Assembly: GCA_003151825.1 (NCBI GenBank)
Contig: PLYO01000031.1
Span: 4,096 to 68,095 of the forward strand
Origin: Ignavibacteriota bacterium
Lineage (GTDB): Bacteria; Bacteroidota; Ignavibacteria; Palsa-1295
Length of the DNA: 64,000 nt
Direction: 5' to 3'
Each line of letters opens with the position of its first letter. Positions within the stretch are counted from its first letter, which is position 1. The position numbers and the translations under genes are program-made. A model generated the notes under the pieces. The model was not told the DNA's origin. It did not search any database and was given only the letters and a program-made list of their open reading frames with translations. This document shows, piece after piece, positions 47,808-62,587 of this stretch.

Positions 47808-48428
47808 CTACCTAAAATACCCCACAAACCCGATCGAAGGTGTGGGAAGTATGTCGCCTGATGGCATGAAGGCGGTGAACATGAGGTTCAACGTCATCCC
47901 GACATTACGTCCATAAGGAATTTCATATCCTAAGCCAAATCCGAGACGGTACGGCGAATTAAGCTCATTCCCGCTCGCATTATTGGTATTCGAATTATTA
48001 CTATTCGAGCCATAACGATTCGAGTTATCTTCATTCGAGCCATCGTTGTAATAATAATACCCTCCGCCGGCGACGAGATAAAGACGAGTCACTCCTAAAA
48101 ATAGATCGTACTGAAGTTCCGCGCCGATGTCGTACATCCCGACATTGCCATCTTTGAATGGCATCCCGGTGATCTGAATTGCAATCGGGCTGTATGGGAG
48201 ATGATCTTTCAGCGTCAGCCCCACGCCGGAGACAAAGCTCGCGCCGAAACCGACGCCATAATAATTATCCGCAAAGACGTGCTGAACGCCGGCCTCGCCT
48301 GCGGTGATCGTCGTTTGACCGAACGCCGGACCGCTCGAAAGCGAGATGACGAGAATGGGAATTAATAATGCACCGAACCTGAATGACTTAACAGTATGCG
48401 ATTGTTTTTTTATGTTCATCATGGCCAT
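47808..48428 (-). CDS. Small outer-membrane beta-barrel-like protein with Asn-rich loop
   Basis: Signal peptide, alternating strand pattern, NSNNNSNTNN loop. Confidence 0.7.
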   Translation of the reverse strand: MAMMNIKKQSHTVKSFRFGALLIPILVISLSSGPAFGQTTITAGEAGVQHVFADNYYGVGFGASFVSGVGLTLKDHLPYSPIAIQITGMPFKDGNVGMYDIGAELQYDLFLGVTRLYLVAGGGYYYYNDGSNEDNSNRYGSNSNNSNTNNASGNELNSPYRLGFGLGYEIPYGRNVGMTLNLMFTAFMPSGDILPTPSIGFVGYFR

Positions 48429-49771
48429 ATTCTTGTTAGCGTCCTCGGAAATGGAATCGCTTCACGAATATGCTCCAGATCGCAGACCCACATGACTAAT
48501 CGTTCGAGTCCGAGTCCAAAACCGGCGTGCGGAACGCTTCCATATCTCCGAAGATCGAGATACCATTCAAAGACGGATTCCGGAAGGCGATGTTCCACTA
48601 ATCGGGCCTGCAACTGGGTTAAATCGTCTTCACGCTGGGAACCGCCGATAATCTCGCCAAATTCGGGGAAAAGTACGTCCATTGCAAGCGCCTTATCCGG
48701 CTCGTTCGGATCGCGCTTCATGTAAAACGCTTTTACAGCGGCGGGATAGTGGTGAACTATTACCGGCACATCGTAGAGTGAAGTAAGTGCGATTTCATCA
48801 TACGCGCCGAAATCATCGCCGTATTCGAATCGCTTGAAGGTTGGCGGTAATGGGTCGCCGGACGCAAGTTTTTCATCCCAATATGTGTCGAGAATTTTTG
48901 CGGCCTCATCGTAATGCATTCGGACGAATGGTTTTAGAATACTTCTGCATCGCGCTTCGAGCCGGCCTGAGTTTTCATCTAAAGTTCCAAGCTCGGCAAG
49001 GCGCTCTGCGAGAACTTTACCTATGACATAATGAATGAACTGTTCCGCAAGCTCCATGTCGCCTTCTAAATCCATGAACGCAACTTCCGGCTCGACCATC
49101 CAGAATTCGTTGATGTGACGCTTCGTCTTCGACCGCTCTGCGCGGAAGGTTGGGCCGAATACATAAACCTTCCCGAACGCCATCGCGCCGGCCTCGCCAT
49201 AAAGCTGACCGGATTGCGAGAGATAGGCCATCCCTTCATCGAAATATTTGGTTTCGAAAAGCGTGCTGGTTCCCTCGGCAGCATTTGGTGTGAGAATCGG
49301 TGAGTCAAAGCAAATAAAATCCCGCTCATGAAAGAATTCCCGAATCGCCCAAATGATGGTATCACGAATTTTCATCGTTGCCCACGGACGCGAATGCCGT
49401 AGCCACAGATGCCGATGCTGCATCAGATATTCGATCCCATGCTCTTTCGGCGTAATGGGATAATCGGTTGCGATTGAGATCGTTTCGAGCTTGGAAACGA
49501 ACAGCTCGACATCGCCGGGAGCCTTCCCTTTCGCTTCCTGCACTTTACCGGTCACGGCAAAAGTCGATTCCTGCGTCAGCTCATTGGCAAGAGCGTAACT
49601 GGCTTCGTCCACCGCGTTCTTCATTACGACGCACTGGCACACGCCGGTGCCGTCGCGGAGCATCAAAAATTGTATTTTCCCGCTCGATCGCTTATGCGAA
49701 AGCCACCCGCGCAGGGTTACTTCTTCGCCAACTTGCTTGCTAAGATCGCCGATATAATCCGTTTGTATCAT
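48419..49771 (-). CDS. asnS: Asparagine--tRNA ligase
   Basis: LRDGTG, YLSQSGQLY, GPTFRAE, EIIGGSQRE, PHAGFGLGLER. Confidence 0.95.
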   Translation of the reverse strand: MIQTDYIGDLSKQVGEEVTLRGWLSHKRSSGKIQFLMLRDGTGVCQCVVMKNAVDEASYALANELTQESTFAVTGKVQEAKGKAPGDVELFVSKLETISIATDYPITPKEHGIEYLMQHRHLWLRHSRPWATMKIRDTIIWAIREFFHERDFICFDSPILTPNAAEGTSTLFETKYFDEGMAYLSQSGQLYGEAGAMAFGKVYVFGPTFRAERSKTKRHINEFWMVEPEVAFMDLEGDMELAEQFIHYVIGKVLAERLAELGTLDENSGRLEARCRSILKPFVRMHYDEAAKILDTYWDEKLASGDPLPPTFKRFEYGDDFGAYDEIALTSLYDVPVIVHHYPAAVKAFYMKRDPNEPDKALAMDVLFPEFGEIIGGSQREDDLTQLQARLVEHRLPESVFEWYLDLRRYGSVPHAGFGLGLERLVMWVCDLEHIREAIPFPRTLTRIWP

Positions 49772-49888
49772 GCCCGTTAAACCCTGATTCGCGCAAAATC
49801 CGTTCAAATAAAGAATGTCTGAACCATGATTTATGAGATTTAAGGGATTTTTGAGAGAAGAATCACGTTTCGGTGCCGCTTGGCAGTA

Positions 49889-49927
49889 CGAATTTTCATA
49901 ATTCATAATTCATCATTCATCATTGCC
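49889..49927 (-). repeat. Inverted copy of the 39-bp heptamer element
   Basis: Reverse complement is GGCAATGATGAATGATGAATTATGAATTATGAAAATTCG. Confidence 0.8.
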
Positions 49928-49931
49928 ATCA

Positions 49932-50003
49932 GATCCCGTAGCTCAGTGGTAGAGCATCTGACTTTTAATCAGAGGGTCGTCGGTTCGAGCCCGCCCGGGG
50001 TCA
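49932..50003 (+). tRNA. tRNA-Lys (anticodon TTT)
   Basis: Acceptor GATCCCG/CGGGGTC, D arm GCTC/GAGC, anticodon arm TCTGA-CTTTTAA-TCAGA, GGTTCGAGCC T loop; no encoded CCA. Confidence 0.93.
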
Positions 50004-50014
50004 CAAAAATTTGT

Positions 50015-50040
50015 GGAATTCACCATGAGATTAGACCGTT
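50015..50040 (+). promoter_or_regulatory. ECF-type promoter-like motif GGAAT-N17-CGTT
   Basis: 3 nt after the duplicated tRNA end and 9 nt before ATG 50050. Confidence 0.55.
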
Positions 50041-50049
50041 CTATCGAAT

Positions 50050-50331
50050 ATGATAAGTGATAAAGAAGCCATTGAAAAAGCTGCCGATTATTTGAAATCG
50101 CTGTCATCAGAGTTGCCAGGTGGTTTGTTAGACCGTCCCGAACGTGTTAGGCTTGAATCCATCAAGCAAAATAATGGGGGATGGGAAATTGTTTTAAGCT
50201 ATTTTACCAAAGCTACCAAACGAAAGCCGGAATGGGTTAATGTGCTTGAAGGCGTTAGACGATTTAAAGAATTTACCGTTAATGCTAAGGGTCAGATCGT
50301 TGCAATGCAAGATCCGACATTAGTCGCATGA
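50050..50331 (+). CDS. Small hypothetical protein, probable PIN partner
   Basis: 93 aa, ATGA overlap with the PIN-like gene. Confidence 0.7.
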   Translation: MISDKEAIEKAADYLKSLSSELPGGLLDRPERVRLESIKQNNGGWEIVLSYFTKATKRKPEWVNVLEGVRRFKEFTVNAKGQIVAMQDPTLVA

Positions 50332-50828
50332 ATTACGATATTCGTTTTGGGGGACGCGATATTCTTCTCGATACCAATCTTTTGGTGATCCTCGTCGTTG
50401 GTTATACTCATCCGTTATTACTACAAAAAGCTCGATTTTCTGGATATACTATTCTTGATTTTGAATTGCTTCACTCGATTGTGAGTGCATGCCGTAAATG
50501 CGTTACTACCCCTCATATCATTGCTGAAGCAAGCAATATTCTTAAAAAAGCTGGAGGGCACGCAGACGATTGCCGGGAAACGCTCGGAAGAATTCTTGGG
50601 TCATGGAAAGAACGTTATTTTGCCAGCGAGTCGTTATTAATGGGGTCTGATAATAAGATTTCGCTCAGACTTGGAGTCGCCGATGGAAGTACCTTGCAGG
50701 TCGCAAAAAAAGGAACTATCATTTTAACGGCTGATGCACCACTTGCTGCGTGGCTCAAGCACAGCGGGCACACCGTTTACGAATATTCCATTCTTCGACA
50801 ACTTCAAGATAAGCTAATTAGATCATAG
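50328..50828 (+). CDS. PIN-domain protein
   Basis: ILLDTNLLV, TTPHIIAEASN, GVAD, ILTAD. Confidence 0.82.
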   Translation: MNYDIRFGGRDILLDTNLLVILVVGYTHPLLLQKARFSGYTILDFELLHSIVSACRKCVTTPHIIAEASNILKKAGGHADDCRETLGRILGSWKERYFASESLLMGSDNKISLRLGVADGSTLQVAKKGTIILTADAPLAAWLKHSGHTVYEYSILRQLQDKLIRS

Positions 50829-50835
50829 CCAAAGA

Positions 50836-50910
50836 ATGATCGTTACCGTCGATAAAAATTCGGGATTTTGCTGGGTCGTCGGTTCGAGCCCGCCCGGGGT
50901 CACAAAAATT
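50836..50910 (+). repeat. Chimeric junction: ispH first 40 nt fused to the tRNA-Lys 3' end (38 nt)
   Basis: 50836-50875 matches 54210-54249 at 39/40; 50873-50910 matches 49974-50011 at 38/38; GGG is shared. Confidence 0.95.
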
Positions 50911-50990
50911 GGCTTTTTAGAAGCTTACGGTATTATTGTGTTTTTATTTGATTTTGCTGGCGGAACCCATTTCCTTCGTATTTTTGTATC

Positions 50991-51821
50991 ATGGTGAACC
51001 AATTAACCGCGAAGTACCTAATGAAAATAATCGTCATTCTCCTGCTCATCGTTGCGACGGCATCATCCGCCTCCGCTCAATCTTCGACCCCGGAGACTAA
51101 GATTCTTGGCCCTTACGTGCTCAAGCAGCAAAAATCTACACACCTGTACTCCGGTCTTACGAATACGTTGTTTGTGTCGGTAACTAAATTCGTCGGAGAT
51201 TATCGCTTGGATTTCTTCGTCGGCGGCGAGAAAACTAATTTTTCCGAGAATGATCCGACGATTAAGGTCACACCCGTGCTCGGTAAAGATGAAGGCAAAA
51301 CAGGAATACTCAAGGTAAGCGTTAAGAAACCCGGTCAACATTCATTTGCGGTTATTCGTGAGGACACTTTCAAAATTGAACCACCTCCATTATTTGCTGT
51401 TGCTGAAGGCGACCTCGAAGAGGGTGATCCACTTCTTATTAAGGCATGGCTTGGTACTATGGACAATCCGATCGAACTTCCAAAAGGACTACAAATGGAA
51501 GCCGTTCCGGGCTTCTTCGATGGAGGTGTCGCCAATATTACCGACAAAGGAACTATGGAAAATGGGGGCGATTCCTTCTTTGGAGGGGATAAAAGGAATG
51601 ATTCCCATCACACGATTGCAACAGGTGCCGAGCCAGCAACAACTGGACATCATTTCTTCTTTGATTTTATGCCATCGCAACAGCAAACAAAAGTAGTTCA
51701 AAAGATGGGAAAGGAGCTTAACGTCACTGTGATTGATCCCCTCACCGGCCAAGCACGCACATTCCAAGTTGCAGTATACCCGAAGAGAATGGGCGTGGAA
51801 TCGGATGCGCCTGAGAAGTGA
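50991..51821 (+). CDS. Secreted hypothetical protein
   Basis: Signal peptide MKIIVILLLIVATASSASA (start may be 51021). Confidence 0.75.
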   Translation: MVNQLTAKYLMKIIVILLLIVATASSASAQSSTPETKILGPYVLKQQKSTHLYSGLTNTLFVSVTKFVGDYRLDFFVGGEKTNFSENDPTIKVTPVLGKDEGKTGILKVSVKKPGQHSFAVIREDTFKIEPPPLFAVAEGDLEEGDPLLIKAWLGTMDNPIELPKGLQMEAVPGFFDGGVANITDKGTMENGGDSFFGGDKRNDSHHTIATGAEPATTGHHFFFDFMPSQQQTKVVQKMGKELNVTVIDPLTGQARTFQVAVYPKRMGVESDAPEK

Positions 51822-51832
51822 ATTGGGGCGTA

Positions 51833-51858
51833 GGAACGGCTGAGACTTGCTGCTCGTT
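51833..51858 (+). promoter_or_regulatory. ECF-type promoter-like motif GGAAC-N17-CGTT
   Basis: 12 nt before ATG 51871. Confidence 0.55.
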
Positions 51859-51870
51859 CGTCACGATGTC

Positions 51871-52107
51871 ATGAATAAAAAGAATGTTCAAGCCTTTGCA
51901 AAATGGTTTTCGGCGAAAGGAATTCGTCCCGATTGTCCCCAATGCGGATGGACTAACGTTAACTTTGATCTTCTAACTGTAATAGCCCATGAGCCTTCAC
52001 ATGAAGAGAATACGCATCACCACCATTTGCTCGCACTTAGGTGTCCAAATTGTGCAGCAGTGCGACTCTTTGATGCTGAGACGATGGGGATAGTTGTACC
52101 GGGTTAA
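51871..52107 (+). CDS. Small zinc-ribbon protein
   Basis: CPQCG and CPNCA pairs. Confidence 0.7.
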   Translation: MNKKNVQAFAKWFSAKGIRPDCPQCGWTNVNFDLLTVIAHEPSHEENTHHHHLLALRCPNCAAVRLFDAETMGIVVPG

Positions 52108-52124
52108 GATTGAGCTCTTCAATC

Positions 52125-52472
52125 TTACGACATACGTACGGGAGGCCTGCGAGCAAGCCCAATTTTCAAGGCTCTAAAAAATCGCGTATAGCCACAGGCG
52201 GCACAACTAACGGCAATAAAATCGCTGTCAGGAAATTGCATTTCTCCTCGCGCATAATCAATTGCGGGAATAGAAAACCTCGCTGATTCCGTACCCGCTT
52301 CTTTGCCACACTGCGAACAAACTCGCGGTACGGTTGAAAGGAACTTCCCTAAGATTTCATGCTCTTTTTGAGTAAGAATGAAATCGGGCTGCGCCTCATT
52401 CTCTCCGTAGGGTTCTCGTGTGCCAAAATTATTCATAATCATCAAACGAAATAGAGAGTTCTTAGCCCTCAT
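52125..52472 (-). CDS. Small zinc-ribbon protein
   Basis: CSQCG and CAACGYTRFF; start uncertain. Confidence 0.65.
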   Translation of the reverse strand: MRAKNSLFRLMIMNNFGTREPYGENEAQPDFILTQKEHEILGKFLSTVPRVCSQCGKEAGTESARFSIPAIDYARGEMQFPDSDFIAVSCAACGYTRFFRALKIGLARRPPVRMS

Positions 52473-52571
52473 TTCAAAAATAATCCGATAACAGTTTCCA
52501 ACTCCGAAATTGAAAAATTTGGTTCAGAGTCAATGCGAAGGATGAGTTCCCATCGGCCCTGAACCAATTGG

Positions 52572-52805
52572 TTAGTGTTTCCCATAAGTTTCCGTCTGCT
52601 CGTGGCAGGGGATACAAAGAGCCTCACAATTAGAAAGCCCATCATGCCCCAAAGAAGCTTGAGCAGTCTTATGATGAGCGTGCCAGTTTGTTCCATACAA
52701 CTGAGTGTTGCAGCGCCCAGAATGTACGTGTCCCAAACGTGTGCATTCGCAACGATTGCCAGCCCTCTGTAGAGCTTGCATTCTTACACTTTCACTAAAA
52801 GCCAT
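52572..52805 (-). CDS. Small HNH endonuclease-like protein
   Basis: RCEC...RC...HAHH...G.DGLSNCEALCIPCH. Confidence 0.8.
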   Translation of the reverse strand: MAFSESVRMQALQRAGNRCECTRLGHVHSGRCNTQLYGTNWHAHHKTAQASLGHDGLSNCEALCIPCHEQTETYGKH

Positions 52806-52957
52806 GTTTTTATGGTTTACCCATTCACTCTCGGTGTAGATCGGTGTTTCCGATTCACCCCAATATGCCGCGGGTCACAGCACACAGTGCAATATAAAAC
52901 ACTGGATTGTGACATAAGTTCATGCTTCCTGCCATTTTGGCATGAAAAATTCCACCC

Positions 52958-53326
52958 TCATTTCGGCTCCCATAACTCGATGGGATTGCCCTCCGGATCG
53001 TTCAAACGAGCGAACCGTCCGTAGGGAGTCATCTCCGGATCGAACGTGACTTCGATCTTGGAAGCGCGAAGCTGATCTACCAGCGTGCCGAGATCGCGGA
53101 CACGAAAATTGATCATCCACTGCTTTTCGGCATTCCCAAAATACTTGGTATCCTCCGGGAACGGTGAGAAGACGGTTGTCCCTGCCTCCTGCGTCCACGG
53201 CTCCTGGCCTTCCCCTGTCGGAACAGGATCGATACCGAGATGTTCCTTATACCACTGAGCGAGTGCGGGTGCATCCTTCGCACGGAAGAACAGCCCACCA
53301 ATTCCAGTAACATGTTTATTTGCCAT
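52958..53326 (-). CDS. VOC/glyoxalase family protein
   Basis: VTGIGGLFFRAKD, MINFRV, DPEGNPIELWEP. Confidence 0.9.
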   Translation of the reverse strand: MANKHVTGIGGLFFRAKDAPALAQWYKEHLGIDPVPTGEGQEPWTQEAGTTVFSPFPEDTKYFGNAEKQWMINFRVRDLGTLVDQLRASKIEVTFDPEMTPYGRFARLNDPEGNPIELWEPK

Positions 53327-53428
53327 ATTTTGGAAACCAGTTTGTCAAAATAAAAAGTTGCTTTATTTCGGTAATGGTGTCATAATTGGCGTGGATGCCG
53401 CAATTTCGCATGTCGTTGGCCCCTAACC

Positions 53429-53548
53429 ATTTCACATCTCTTAAAGGCTGAGGATGCTGTTGAACTTGATCCTACGAAATTGACGATTGATGGGCACGTT
53501 GAGCGAGTGTACGAGTTGGCAAAAGCCATGCTGGAATTATTGAAATAG
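53429..53548 (+). pseudogene. Probable 3' remnant of cytidylate kinase (cmk)
   Basis: ISHLLKAEDAVELDPTKLTIDGHVERVYELAKAMLELLK* resembles the Cmk C-terminus (SPL.KA.DA...DTT..TI...V). Confidence 0.6.
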
Positions 53549-53566
53549 CATAATGCTTATTAGACT

Positions 53567-54157
53567 ATGAGCAAAACTGCGGTCGCACTGTTTTTTCTGA
53601 CTATTGCAGTTCCGACAATGAGTCAGACTGTCTCGCGAACACCGGTCGCTTCAAAGGATAGCGCGATAATAGCCACTGAAGATTCGCTTGCAATAGTTGA
53701 AATGTTTGCTCGGCGGCATCCAGAATCACCGTTTCTCAAAAGAGATATTGCAATCGGTGGGTCGCTTGGAACTCCTGGCATTGTGAATTTTATTGCTGAA
53801 GGATATTATGACCGCGTGGGTCTGCGCATTGAAGGAGGAGCTATGTTAGTATTACTTGCATTTGGCGCTGGATGGCAAGCCGATGTTAGCTATGTGCTGT
53901 TGAGAGGCTCCGATTACCTTCTGGAATGCTCGGCAATATATTTCAAAAGCATTTTTACAAGCTTCGATGCCGGCGAGACAACATGGTACAACGGAATAGG
54001 CGTAGGCATGGGAGTAACTTCAGGACCTATTTTTCTCCAATTGGGAATCGGGCATACTCGTTCGGGAGACCAGTACACCGCGGAGAATCCCAATAAGATA
54101 CTTATCAATGGATTGCCAATGAGTGGGCAAGTTGGCCTTATACTTCCATTGCATTAG
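53567..54157 (+). CDS. Secreted/outer-membrane hypothetical protein
   Basis: Signal peptide and Gly-rich beta strands. Confidence 0.7.
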   Translation: MSKTAVALFFLTIAVPTMSQTVSRTPVASKDSAIIATEDSLAIVEMFARRHPESPFLKRDIAIGGSLGTPGIVNFIAEGYYDRVGLRIEGGAMLVLLAFGAGWQADVSYVLLRGSDYLLECSAIYFKSIFTSFDAGETTWYNGIGVGMGVTSGPIFLQLGIGHTRSGDQYTAENPNKILINGLPMSGQVGLILPLH

Positions 54158-54209
54158 CTGACAGGTGACACCTTAACGATTTTACAGCTGTGCTTGTTTA
54201 GATTTATTA

Positions 54210-55169
54210 ATGATCGTAACCGTCGATAAAAATTCGGGATTTTGCTGGGGCGTGGTTCGCGCGGTGAACTTCGCCGAGGCGGAGCTTGCCGGACAGTCCG
54301 GCAACGGGCGCGCGCCTCGGCTGTATTCACTTGGCGATATTATCCATAATCCGGTGGAAGTGGATCGTTTGCGTTCGGAGGGCCTCGAAACGATCACGCA
54401 CTCCGATTTCGAGCGCATTGCTGAAGAGAACCGCGCGCTTGGTATCGAATCCAAAATTCTCATTCGCGCGCATGGCGAACCGCCGTCAACCTTTGCAAAG
54501 ATGCGAGAACTTGGGCTTGGTATGGTGGATGCTACCTGTCCCGTCGTGGCCAAAGTGCAGGAGCGCATTTATAAATTCTACGAAAAAGGTTACCAGATCG
54601 TTATCTTCGGGAAAAAAGATCATGCGGAAGTGATCGGACTTCGCGGCGTAGTCAATGACGAAGCCATCGTCATTAAATCTGTCGAAGAAGCATTGGCGAA
54701 AATTAAATTCGACCGGCCAACCGTCGTGTTCTCGCAAACGACGATGGATCGCCCCACTTTCCGCGAAATCCGCGACCGATTGAAAGAACGCATCGCCGAT
54801 CTCGTTGTCGATACGATGGAAGAAACCGCCATCGAATTTCAAGCGAAAGATACCATCTGCGGACAAGTATCGGGGCGCGAAACGAAGCTCGTCGAGCTTG
54901 TGCGAACGCAGGATGTAATCGTCTTCGTCGCCGGACGGAACAGCTCGAACGGCGTTGTGCTCTTCAACATCGCGCGCGAAGCCAACCCGCGCACGCATTT
55001 CATCGAAGACGAGCGGGAACTGGATATGGCGTGGTTCGATAATGCAGAAACGGTTGCCATCACCGGTGCAACGAGCACCCCGCAATGGCTGATGCAGCGC
55101 GTCGCCGATGCGATCTACAAAATGTGCGGCGAACCGGAGAAAGCGGAATTGCTACCTATCCTCGTGTAA
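54210..55169 (+). CDS. ispH: 4-hydroxy-3-methylbut-2-enyl diphosphate reductase
   Basis: GFCWGVVRA, IIHN, RAHG, DATCP, DTIC, SSN, TGATSTP. Confidence 0.96.
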   Translation: MIVTVDKNSGFCWGVVRAVNFAEAELAGQSGNGRAPRLYSLGDIIHNPVEVDRLRSEGLETITHSDFERIAEENRALGIESKILIRAHGEPPSTFAKMRELGLGMVDATCPVVAKVQERIYKFYEKGYQIVIFGKKDHAEVIGLRGVVNDEAIVIKSVEEALAKIKFDRPTVVFSQTTMDRPTFREIRDRLKERIADLVVDTMEETAIEFQAKDTICGQVSGRETKLVELVRTQDVIVFVAGRNSSNGVVLFNIAREANPRTHFIEDERELDMAWFDNAETVAITGATSTPQWLMQRVADAIYKMCGEPEKAELLPILV

Positions 55170-55220
55170 ACCGGGTTTTAACCCGGTTCAGAAATGCCCG
55201 AGTTGAAACCCGGGCTACAC
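55169..55220 (-). repeat. REP-like doublet between convergent ispH and ruvA
   Basis: GTAGCCCGGGTTTCAACTCGGGC...AACCGGGTTAAAACCCGGTT; GTAG overlaps the ruvA stop. Confidence 0.7.
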
Positions 55221-55811
55221 CGCACTTGCTTCTTTCAACGCCGTCTTAATCAACTTCTCGACGTTCGCAGCCATTTCCGGCTGGTCGCGCACCACATCTC
55301 GAATTGCTTTCTCTGCCGCGTTGCGTTGATAGCCTAAGGCAAGCAGTGCTTGCAGCGCATCGTTGCGAACTTTACCGCCACCTTCGGATGGCGCAGAATA
55401 AATTTCTTCTTTCAATAATTTATCACGTAATTCTACAATAAGCCGTTCGGCGGTTTTGCGGCCAATGCCGGGAATTCCGATGAGACGGTGAACATCGCTT
55501 GCGCGGATAGCTTCGCGCAGCGGAGCTTCGCCGATTCCGGAAAGAATCGCGATCGCGCTCTTCGGGCCAATGCCGCTAATGGCCACCAGCTGATCGAATA
55601 GCGCGCGCTCGGCGAGCGAGGCAAAGCCGAAGAGCGTCATCGAGTCCTCGCGAACGACAAGGCGCGTCCAAATTTCGTATTCCTTGCCGATTATCACGGC
55701 ACGGTCGTATGCTTCCTGCGTGCAGAGCACCTCATAGCCCACTCCACCCGCCTCGATAACAAGCGTGTAGGGAGTACGAAAACGCAGCTTTCCGCGAAGA
55801 AGGGCGATCAT
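55215..55811 (-). CDS. ruvA: Holliday junction branch migration protein RuvA
   Basis: GVGYEV, VRED...LFGF, ISGIGPKSA, IPGIGRKTAER, ALLALGY. Confidence 0.96.
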   Translation of the reverse strand: MIALLRGKLRFRTPYTLVIEAGGVGYEVLCTQEAYDRAVIIGKEYEIWTRLVVREDSMTLFGFASLAERALFDQLVAISGIGPKSAIAILSGIGEAPLREAIRASDVHRLIGIPGIGRKTAERLIVELRDKLLKEEIYSAPSEGGGKVRNDALQALLALGYQRNAAEKAIRDVVRDQPEMAANVEKLIKTALKEASAV

Positions 55812-60703: not shown

Positions 60704-62587
60704 ATGCGCTATTTCTTTTTCTCTGGGCTGTTATTGCTGAGCCTTACACCACATGCACGGTGCCAGACCACCGCCGGCAAGGATTTCTGGCTCGGCTTCA
60801 TGTATAACGATTCGGGCATTCGCAATCCGATCGAACTGACCGTCTATCTTAGCTCTCCGCTCCATACGAGCGGCACTATTTCCATGCCCTCGACACATTG
60901 GGAACAACCGTTCGAAGTTGAGCCGGGTAAAGGAACTTCGATTCGAATCCCATCGGATATTGGCATGGCTCGCGTTTCGGAAATTTCCGAACCGAAGGCC
61001 ATTCATATCGAATCGCTCGACACCATTGCTTGCTTTGCGTTAAATTACAGCGCGCAGACCTCGGATGCCTCGGTCATCCTGCCGTCCAAAGCGCTTGGAA
61101 GAGAATACCGTGTCATGGCTTACACTCCCGCCGGGTATCCAAGCGAGAGTATGATCGTGCCTGCATGGGACTCAACTTCGGTCGAAATCACTCCATCGGC
61201 GGAGACATTGAGTGGAAAAAAAGCACAGATTCCTTTCACGGTCACGCTTTCACGCGGAGAAGTGTATCAAATTCAATCGACCGGCGATCTGACCGGCTCG
61301 CGAGTTATTTCCACGAAACCGGTCGCGGTGTTTGGAGGATCAGCATGTGCGTCCGTCCCAGCCGGCTCGGATTTTTCCAATCATCTCTTCGAGGAAATGT
61401 ATCCGCTCCCCGCATGGGGAAAACAATTTGTAACAATTCCCCTAAAAAGCCGCAAGGGAGATACATACCGGTTCCTCGCCTCAGAAGACAGCACGACGGT
61501 CGAGATTGGAGAGAAGCAAGTTCATCTGAACTCTGGGCAATTTTTCGAATGCATGCTGAAAGCGCCCACGTCCGTTTTTGCCTCGAAGCCAATCTCGATC
61601 GCGCAGTTCAGCAATAGCTCCTCCTTCGATAAGAATGAGAATTCCGACCCCTTTATGATCATGCTCAGCCCAAACGAGCAAATGCTGCATAGCGTCACGT
61701 TCAATGCGTTTCAATCCAAAGTCATTACGGCTTATTATTTAAATGTGCTTATCCCATTCGCCGGCCACACGCTCCTTCAGCTTGATGGAAAAGTTGTCAC
61801 GACAAAGGCTGTCCCTGGCGACACGGAATACAATTTCGCACAGCTTGCGATCGGCGCGGGCGATCATACTCTTTCCTGCGATAGCGGCTTTATCGCTTAT
61901 GTCTATGGCTATGGCGTTGCCGAGTCCTACGGCTATTCGGCGGGTGCATCGATCAAAGCTATTCAGCATTTCGTGCTTATTCATGGCCGTGCCATCGATA
62001 AAAAGACTGGTAATCCCGTGGCGGCGCGAATCGTCTATCAAACACTTCCCGAGGGCCGTGAAGCTGGAACCGTCAATGCAAATCCGACAACGGGAGACTA
62101 CACCGCTGTCCTCCCGACGGGATTTACGTATGGAATCCGCGCGGAAGCTCAAAATTATTATGCAATCAGCGATCACCTGGAAGCACTCGACACCACAAAC
62201 GATATGCGTGTTTCCCGCGATTTAGAACTCGCGCCGATCGAAGTCGGGCAAGTCATTCGGCTCAATAACGTGTTTTTCGATCTCAATCAAACGGTACTCC
62301 GTCCCGAATCGTATCCCGAATTGGATCGCGTGGTTAAATTGCTCAAAGAGAATAAAGATATTTCCATTGCCATTAGTGGCCACACAGATAATATCGGATC
62401 GGACGAAGATAATATGAGGCTTTCGATTGGCCGCGCGGCCGCCGTTCAGGATTATATCACTCACTCTGGCATCGATTCGAATCGTGTGACCGCCAAAGGA
62501 TTTGGCAAAACCCAACCCATCGCTACCAACGACACCGAGGAAGGACGGCAGCAAAACCGGCGGGTGGAATTTGCGATTGTGAAATAA
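60704..62587 (+). CDS. IgGFc-binding-like N-terminal domain fused to an OmpA peptidoglycan-binding domain
   Basis: GKDFWLGF, KPVAVFGG, DPFM, FIAYVYGY; GHTDNIG...NRRVEF. Confidence 0.87.
   Translation: MRYFFFSGLLLLSLTPHARCQTTAGKDFWLGFMYNDSGIRNPIELTVYLSSPLHTSGTISMPSTHWEQPFEVEPGKGTSIRIPSDIGMARVSEISEPKAIHIESLDTIACFALNYSAQTSDASVILPSKALGREYRVMAYTPAGYPSESMIVPAWDSTSVEITPSAETLSGKKAQIPFTVTLSRGEVYQIQSTGDLTGSRVISTKPVAVFGGSACASVPAGSDFSNHLFEEMYPLPAWGKQFVTIPLKSRKGDTYRFLASEDSTTVEIGEKQVHLNSGQFFECMLKAPTSVFASKPISIAQFSNSSSFDKNENSDPFMIMLSPNEQMLHSVTFNAFQSKVITAYYLNVLIPFAGHTLLQLDGKVVTTKAVPGDTEYNFAQLAIGAGDHTLSCDSGFIAYVYGYGVAESYGYSAGASIKAIQHFVLIHGRAIDKKTGNPVAARIVYQTLPEGREAGTVNANPTTGDYTAVLPTGFTYGIRAEAQNYYAISDHLEALDTTNDMRVSRDLELAPIEVGQVIRLNNVFFDLNQTVLRPESYPELDRVVKLLKENKDISIAISGHTDNIGSDEDNMRLSIGRAAAVQDYITHSGIDSNRVTAKGFGKTQPIATNDTEEGRQQNRRVEFAIVK

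Follow-up and report, generated by a model that had tools for sequence, protein, structure and literature searches.

Locus anatomy and repeats

This study concerns the interval between tRNA-Lys(UUU) and ispH in an uncultured Ignavibacteriota bacterium (contig PLYO01000031.1), where two alternative gene cargos stand in tandem, separated by a joint made of fragments of both flanking genes. The window, which is the whole 64,000-nucleotide (nt) stretch analysed, lies on contig C12 of a metagenome-assembled genome (MAG) of 3.59 Mb in 51 contigs, with a completeness of 98.4% and a contamination of 6.57%. On the plus strand the order is tRNA-Lys(UUU), cargo A, the joint of an ispH start fragment (ispH') with a tRNA end fragment (tRNA'), cargo B, and the intact ispH. 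The features are as follows (aa, amino acids; ORF, open reading frame).

48419..49906, minus strand: asnS, asparagine--tRNA ligase (NCBIfam equivalog NF003037, 527 bits against a cut-off of 414; Pfam tRNA-synt_2)
49932..50004, plus strand: intact tRNA-Lys(UUU) (ARAGORN; Rfam RF00005 at 49932-50003, 67.4 bits)
49974..50011, plus strand: first copy of the tRNA repeat, namely the tRNA end from position 43 and the 8-nt trailer CAAAAATT (repeat family D3)
50050..50828, plus strand: cargo A, two overlapping genes (ORFs 50050-50331, 93 aa, and 50328-50828, 166 aa)
50835..50875, plus strand: ispH' scar, with position -1, codons 1-13 and 1 nt, GTT at codon 3 (repeat family D1)
50836..50997, plus strand: chimeric 53-aa ORF, from ispH codons 1-13 through tRNA' into the start of cargo B (ORF list)
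50873..50875, plus strand: the joint, GGG common to ispH' and tRNA' (repeats D1 and D3, sequence)
50873..50910, plus strand: tRNA' scar, second copy of the tRNA repeat, not a functional tRNA (called neither by ARAGORN nor by Rfam)
50911..54208: cargo B
54209..54249, plus strand: repeat copy at the 5' end of the resident ispH, GTA at codon 3 (repeat family D1)
54210..55169, plus strand: intact ispH, 319 aa (Pfam LYTB 1.3e-80; NCBIfam equivalog, 319.5 bits against a cut-off of 276)
after ispH, minus strand: ruvA

The joint is defined by two direct repeats, whose lengths of 38 and 41 nt are far beyond chance within 64 kb. The tRNA repeat was identical at all 38 nt between 49974-50011 and 50873-50910, with a spacing of 899 nt. 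The ispH repeat extended over 50835-50879 and 54209-54253 with a spacing of 3374 nt, and its ispH-derived part (50835-50875 against 54209-54249) was identical at 40 of 41 nt, the sole difference being T at 50844 versus A at 54218, which gives GTT versus GTA at codon 3, both coding for Val and therefore silent. In tRNA', the last 30 nt of the tRNA together with the 8-nt trailer were joined to ispH codons 1-13 through the GGG. The order of these elements, the GGG overlap and the silent change had been described in an earlier note made from the sequence alone, and all of them proved correct in our analysis. The chimeric 53-aa ORF that results is probably meaningless, though it starts with the start signals of ispH.

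ARAGORN called a single tRNA in the window, the tRNA-Lys(UUU) at 49932-50004, and Rfam found no RNA family besides this tRNA within 49000-55500. The counts given by the promoter and terminator scans were no higher than those in shuffled sequences. Just 5' of the tRNA, at 49885-49931, an AT-rich motif of ~35-45 nt was observed, composed of short repeats of the TTCATAATTCAT type. It accounted for 25 of the 33 matches listed within the own genome, which were spread over many contigs at 84-97% identity (one longer match at 71%), and a similar run also preceded the tRNA in the relative L052. This motif may be a promoter-type or a dispersed repeat element.

The joint in metagenome assemblies

Contigs of four public runs from four studies were aligned to 49800-54400, and the joint was counted as bridged when a contig covered it with 0 mismatches and at least 31 nt on either side of position 50873; contigs of this kind drop rare sequence forms. 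The joint was bridged in two of the four runs, which belong to two different studies. In run X1, which matched best among the four and may be the source sample, a 993-nt contig (record 2, 50262-51254) spanned the joint with 0 mismatches, as did a 151-nt contig in run X7 (record 26, 50780-50930), which came from another study and bore another habitat label. A 65-nt contig of run X6 (record 19) had just 27 nt to the left of the joint and was not counted, and a contig of run X5 (record 10) stopped at 50874 without bridging, as is expected at a repeated 31-mer. Pieces of cargo A and of cargo B were both present in all four runs. The depths in run X1 were ~4.3 for cargo A and 0.04-4.7 for cargo B, which are of the same order, contig depth being unable to give copy number. 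Both checks proposed in the earlier note, for sequence spanning the joint and for coverage of the two cargos, spoke for a real joint.

These results showed that the joint is real and not an assembly error. An assembler might be thought to have merged two strain variants, tRNA-A-ispH and tRNA-B-ispH, given a source MAG of 51 contigs with 6.57% contamination, but ispH' and tRNA' share only GGG, which offers a k-mer assembler no route between the two, and mismatch-free contigs from separate runs of two studies carry the joint; such a chimera was rejected, its probability being negligible.

Cargo alleles and scars upstream of ispH

Forty relatives were searched at the DNA level and 16 regions were examined, the layouts being drawn from blast and from maps of ORF families. 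In addition, a 22-mer of the ispH start was scanned in genome and metagenome collections, with seven stretches per scan. Three stretches matched the 22-mer by chance, tblastn finding no ispH in them, and were left out: L049 and L057, both with the same cyanobacterial-type intergenic sequence, and the high-GC L056.

Directly adjacent cmk and ispH were found in all four loci from other genera of the family (L025-L028), as well as in G011, G008 and L058, which lie within or near the genus. Cargo was observed between these two genes in other relatives: one gene of family F6, a family of ~200-aa signal-peptide proteins that is the usual upstream neighbour of ispH in the genus, in G003, two of them in G010 and in contig L053, and a two-gene cassette in G012. 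A sub-clade had asnS and tRNA-Lys as its left flank instead of cmk, and asnS-tRNA synteny was seen in G014, G006, G009, G002 and L052. The tRNA was followed by F6 and ispH in G009, by two F6 genes and ispH in G002, by other cargo and ispH in G006, and by the glyoxalase gene, further cargo and ispH in G014. The site was empty in L052, with 51 nt from tRNA to ispH. In L054 the order of tRNA, glyoxalase gene, cmk remnant, F6 and ispH corresponded to cargo B minus its left 2 kb, which is a B-like single allele, and L055 carried cmk, A1, A2 and ispH, which is an A-like allele with cmk rather than the tRNA as its left flank (A1 and A2 are the two genes of cargo A). Since empty, A-like and B-like layouts all occur in relatives, the space just 5' of the ispH start codon is a hot spot for cassettes. 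The cargo of the relatives was co-oriented with ispH, and its stop codon often overlapped or almost abutted the ispH ATG.

Partial ispH starts were also found in relatives when the first 120 nt of each ispH were compared with its own upstream DNA (G005, with 170 nt upstream, was excluded). They lay 5' of a cassette and a full ispH in 3 of the 13 genomes of the genus that had 1.4 kb or more upstream, and were seen in none of the four other-genus family loci and none of the five metagenome contigs. G004 had the order cmk-ispH'-F6-ispH with a scar of 82 nt (ispH positions 7-88, 93% identical), in which TTGATT stood against ATGCAA of the resident gene; the scar and the resident start differ at several sites and thus come from two lineages. 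In G014, an ispH' reaching to about position 74 (59 nt aligned) had decayed by a 12-nt internal duplication and was followed by a two-gene cassette and a full ispH. In G013, the tRNA trailer was joined at AAAAATT to an ispH' of 33 nt (position 19 to about 57), followed by the same two-gene cassette as in G014. The scars of the relatives ended at variable ispH positions (51-57, 74 and ~90). Two further self-matches of ispH, 17 nt in L039 (E 0.006) and 13 nt in L056, were borderline and were treated as chance. In G012, a cassette leader of ~40 nt formed the last codons of the cmk ORF, and the leader accompanied the cassette in G014 and G013 too; this possible cmk fragment was not counted as a second joint of both flanks. 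The earlier note had called the scar in our window its freshest event, and this is plausible in comparison with the decayed scars of G014 and G013, to which the comparison was confined, as only 1 of its 41 nt differs.

The two-gene cassette shared by G014, G013 and G012 may be HEPN-like, judged by eye from an R-x4-H motif, and had no match in Pfam, PADLOC or NCBIfam. In G006 (L031), ispH was broken up into three ORFs and codon 121 was a stop, probably through assembly indel errors and not because the gene is a pseudogene. Palindromic elements of ~115-125 nt with the ends GTCATTSCGAG...CTCGSAATGAC (S = C or G) were also observed, at L059 ~2240-2366 (contig C30 of the own genome, 3' of cmk) and at L029 ~2264-2378 (G014), one of them lying inside the G014 hot spot. 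From their sequence they look like a family of miniature inverted-repeat transposable elements (MITE) or of repetitive extragenic palindromes (REP).

The GC content of cargo A was 0.41-0.44, versus 0.48-0.55 in the flanks. Its two genes, A1 (93 aa) and A2 (166 aa), overlap by ATGA, an overlap type that is frequent in toxin-antitoxin pairs, and cargo A is predicted to be a toxin-antitoxin-like pair. Neither protein had a match in Pfam, PADLOC or NCBIfam. The AlphaFold2 model of A2 had a mean predicted local distance difference test score (pLDDT) of 68, and its top Foldseek rows were mostly PIN domains, none of them with E<=0.001 (the best at 0.016). A profile search with A2 gave 2120 cluster representatives, and sub-threshold matches to PIN or DUF188 were found in 2 of 10 relatives scanned. 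On these grounds A2 is tentatively taken as PIN-like. The cassette just 5' of ispH in L055 encodes proteins 68% and 52% identical to those of cargo A (tblastn). Among species-representative genomes, A2 matched in 4 of the 34 other genomes of the order, as distant paralogues only (27-35% identity). A distant paralogue (32% identity) was also present in the own genome, on contig C16 at 62052-62501 (L066).

Cargo B consists of the following parts.

50911..52957: left 2-kb block, with a 276-aa signal-peptide protein, two small zinc-ribbon-like ORFs and a 77-aa HNH-like ORF (ORFs; weak Pfam matches)
52958..53326, minus strand: glyoxalase/VOC-family gene (Pfam Glyoxalase 5.5e-08)
53426..53546, plus strand: 3' remnant of cmk, last ~36-40 codons (cmk protein matches)
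53567..54157, plus strand: 196-aa signal-peptide protein of family F6 (tblastn, family map)

The glyoxalase gene adjoins the tRNA in both G014 and L054, with tblastn identities of 95% and 75%, respectively, and in L054, from which the left 2-kb block is missing, it abuts the tRNA. All 13 cmk proteins of relatives matched only 53426-53546 within the window, with E down to 9e-10. The full cmk of the genome is located on contig C30, to which the remnant was 73% identical over 82 nt, and the remnant was also present in the metagenome contig L054. It is a third kind of flanking-gene scar. F6 had tblastn matches 5' of ispH in G010 (two copies), G002, G009, G007 and L054. In the comparison of the window with L054, the identity was 95-100% over 53536-54314, which comprises the F6 gene and about the first 100 nt of ispH, versus 52-87% on its left side and 87-90% on its right, and this peak points to a recent homologous exchange that ended at or in the 5' end of ispH. 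The 7-mer AAAAATT occurs at both borders of the left 2-kb block (50904-50910 and 52945-52951), in ispH codons 7-9 and at the tRNA/ispH' joint of G013; its recurrence may be due to chance, the 7-mer being AT-rich.

Origin of the joint

When the tRNA region was aligned with the 5' end of ispH, the best local match began exactly at the joint (49974 and 54247) and agreed in 14 of 17 columns, GGGTCGTCGGTTCGAGC against GGGGCGT-GGTTCGCGC, spanning ispH codons 13-18 and the T-arm of the tRNA. The look-alike described in the earlier note is thus real. Of 2000 shuffles, 13.7% showed similarity of this strength, as did 10.8% of 443 other 140-nt windows, and since 11-14% of controls do as well, the patch is not a designed site; as the best foothold available, it is what a microhomology-guided join would use. 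Within the patch, the sequence turns to the tRNA type at once 3' of the GGG, so that the exchange did not occur in the 6-nt identical stretch GGTTCG; the action of a site-specific recombinase on a pseudo-site is disfavoured by this. We also considered whether the 5' end of ispH holds a special recombination site. The codon identity of the first 16 ispH codons was 0.62 versus 0.48 for the rest in a synonymous-site conservation test, where they formed the top window and other windows reached 0.60; conservation is expected at a gene start, and this was not taken as evidence of such a site.

We propose, with a probability of about 0.5, that the joint is the scar of homology-facilitated illegitimate recombination (HFIR) at the cassette hot spot 5' of ispH. 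Two strains would have differed in the cargo that lay between tRNA-Lys and ispH, one having allele A and the other allele B, and a presumably linear piece of DNA of one strain would have entered the other. One of its ends would have recombined through long homology, in asnS/tRNA or in ispH, and the other would have been joined at the GGG microhomology on the look-alike patch. Because this second end had too little homology and was joined by microhomology, the incoming allele would have been stacked beside the resident one instead of replacing it, and ispH codons 1-13 would have ended up joined to the final 30 nt of the tRNA and its trailer. The conserved asnS/tRNA and ispH that flank the site are candidates for the long homologous anchors. 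The GGG (50873-50875) is a GC-rich microhomology of 3 nt, which lies within the 3-10 bp that HFIR joints usually show (PMC3240628).

This proposal has two mirror versions. In the first, the incoming piece would have been asnS/tRNA-A-ispH 1-40, anchored on the left, and in the second it would have run from tRNA position 43 through cargo B into ispH, where it would have been anchored. A resident cargo B is suggested by the layout, which is as in the nearest relatives G014 and L054, and by the sequence after tRNA', which resembles the degenerate tRNA terminator of G014 and G006. An incoming cargo B is equally credible, as the scars of G004 and G014 fit an ispH-anchored entry and the recent exchange ends in ispH. 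GTT at codon 3 is the common allele (11 of 19 sequences of relatives) and does not tell incoming from resident. A scan of 10 cargo ORFs gave no recombinase domain, and neither in the cargo nor elsewhere on the contig was an integrase found, the search for serine recombinases having covered the cargo only. The three PF00589 matches of the genome lie on other contigs (C42, C33 and C27) and none on C12. Homologues of comEC and dprA were present, which is weak evidence, as they were likewise found in 10 and 11, respectively, of 14 control genomes.

Several points weigh against HFIR. The single alleles that the earlier note expected in relatives were found approximately, as the empty site of L052, the B-like L054 and the A-like L055 with cmk on its left, and no exact allele of the same species was among them. 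The look-alike patch is no stronger than chance similarity, and natural transformation of this uncultured lineage is unproven. Both copies of the tRNA end have the same trailer CAAAAATT, whereas relatives diverge 3-6 nt past the tRNA end, so that either donor and recipient were very close there or the repeat duplicates the sequence of one lineage. No loss of recipient DNA is evident, as neither flanking gene is damaged and neither cargo is missing, whereas in classical HFIR the recipient usually loses a stretch of DNA about as long as the insert (PMC3240628). The same source reports that duplications of homologous segments in E. coli arose in 56 of 60 clones by a single crossover of a circularised fragment and not by HFIR, which favours a circle (PMC3240628).

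Such a circle, consisting of the tRNA end, a cargo and the ispH start closed at the GGG, would have been integrated by a single crossover, its size being 899 bp with cargo A (crossover in the 38-nt tRNA repeat) or 3374 bp with cargo B (crossover in the 41-nt ispH repeat). It predicts exactly the product seen, a unit between direct repeats of both homologous pieces, and direct repeats flanking the inserted unit, as a single crossover requires, were found by the repeat search. The identical trailer in both tRNA copies also fits a crossover inside the tRNA repeat. However, only 38-41 nt of homology would have been available for this crossover, which is near the lower limit for RecA-dependent exchange, and two rare steps would be required. 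A linear fragment with one long arm yields the identical product, so that recombination through 38-41 nt is not needed. No circle or deletion joint was listed in the contigs of the four runs, contigs in which rare variants are lost. In E. coli conjugation, where incoming linear DNA was mostly circularised before the single crossover, a homologous segment is likewise directly duplicated around the insert, but these duplications measure 109-950 bp, versus 38 and 41 nt here (PMC3240628). For the circular allele proposed in the earlier note, the product fits and the signature of the circle itself was missing from these contigs; we regard this origin as possible, though not probable. The more general claim of that note, of an illegitimate joint through which two alleles of a single hot spot came to be stacked, holds.

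The same GGG joint would also be created by a microhomology-mediated tandem duplication of the segment from tRNA position 43 to ispH position 40, with one cargo later replaced by homologous recombination. Replacement of alleles by homologous recombination does occur at this locus, as the comparison with L054 indicates, but this course of events needs two steps by way of an unstable kilobase tandem repeat, the replacement itself again needs an arm of 38-41 nt, and no tandem of identical cargo was present in the relatives' loci examined, which makes it improbable.

Integrase-mediated islands in tRNA genes consist of a complete tRNA, an insert and a repeat of the 3' tRNA fragment, and they can accrete in tandem. 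An island of this kind in tRNA-Lys, in which cargo A and ispH' form a non-autonomous unit that was mobilised in trans between attL and attR (the 38-nt repeats) and that acquired ispH' by aberrant excision, would account for the direct repeat from the T-arm to past the gene end, which is the classical signature, and for the two units in tandem, and the three tyrosine recombinases elsewhere in the genome might have served it. It is nevertheless very improbable. An integrase is lacking in the cargo and on the contig, the start of ispH is duplicated too, and the left edge of the repeat, set by the ispH microhomology, falls on the very base where ispH' ends and the look-alike begins, which an island does not predict. 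The exchange did not take place in GGTTCG, the only stretch usable as an overlap, the scars of relatives have variable ends (ispH 51-57, 74 and ~90), and no unrelated elements with the same 38-nt att were found in the tRNA-Lys loci of the relatives examined. The locus mimics a tRNA island, but it has neither the integrase nor the core exchange of one. It also differs from an integron cassette array, there being no tyrosine recombinase on the contig and no inverted repeat of the attC type at the cassette borders among the 12 pairs listed.

The process is of a known kind and not a new kind of mobile element. As in the HFIR of Streptococcus pneumoniae, Acinetobacter baylyi and Pseudomonas stutzeri, foreign DNA lies beside a conserved anchor with a 3-nt microhomology and no recombinase gene (PMC3240628). 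The present case, known from the sequence of an uncultured organism, differs in having no recipient deletion and in that the joint lies within sequence homologous between donor and recipient, so that both flanking genes leave short duplications. The arrays of orphan type VI secretion (T6SS) immunity genes in Vibrio cholerae and the orphan 3' ends of Rhs and contact-dependent inhibition (CDI) genes are similar in that a new module is inserted at the end of a conserved gene while the old one is pushed along, with scars of gene fragments and with HFIR proposed as the cause and no integrase found (PMC5361080). In those cases effector-immunity pairs are the modules and the conserved 5' portion of an effector gene serves as the anchor (PMC5361080), whereas here a tRNA and an essential housekeeping gene serve as anchors, and pieces of both flanks lie in the scar.

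A further reading would be that the first ~40-90 nt of ispH and the end of the upstream gene (tRNA-Lys or cmk) serve as a docking site for small integrase-less cassettes in this Ignavibacteriota/Kapaibacteria-like genus, which we consider doubtful. If it were true, units bounded by fragments of both flanks would move between genomes, perhaps as small circles, and would form arrays like those of integrons but with no integrase, always in the orientation of ispH and in many cases coupled to it in translation, and the tandem of A and B could resolve to either single allele through the 38-41-nt repeats.

Under HFIR, the joint would be an unusually legible record, showing in what way a hot spot between core genes can gain a cassette with no machinery of a mobile element: both flanks left pieces, the microhomology can be read to the base, and the relatives provide the empty, single and scarred states. 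No integrase would then be needed for the signature of a tRNA island to appear, a point of weight for automatic island callers. Uncultured Ignavibacteriota-like bacteria of peat and permafrost would trade small cassettes, toxin-antitoxin-like and others, by recombination anchored in an essential gene.

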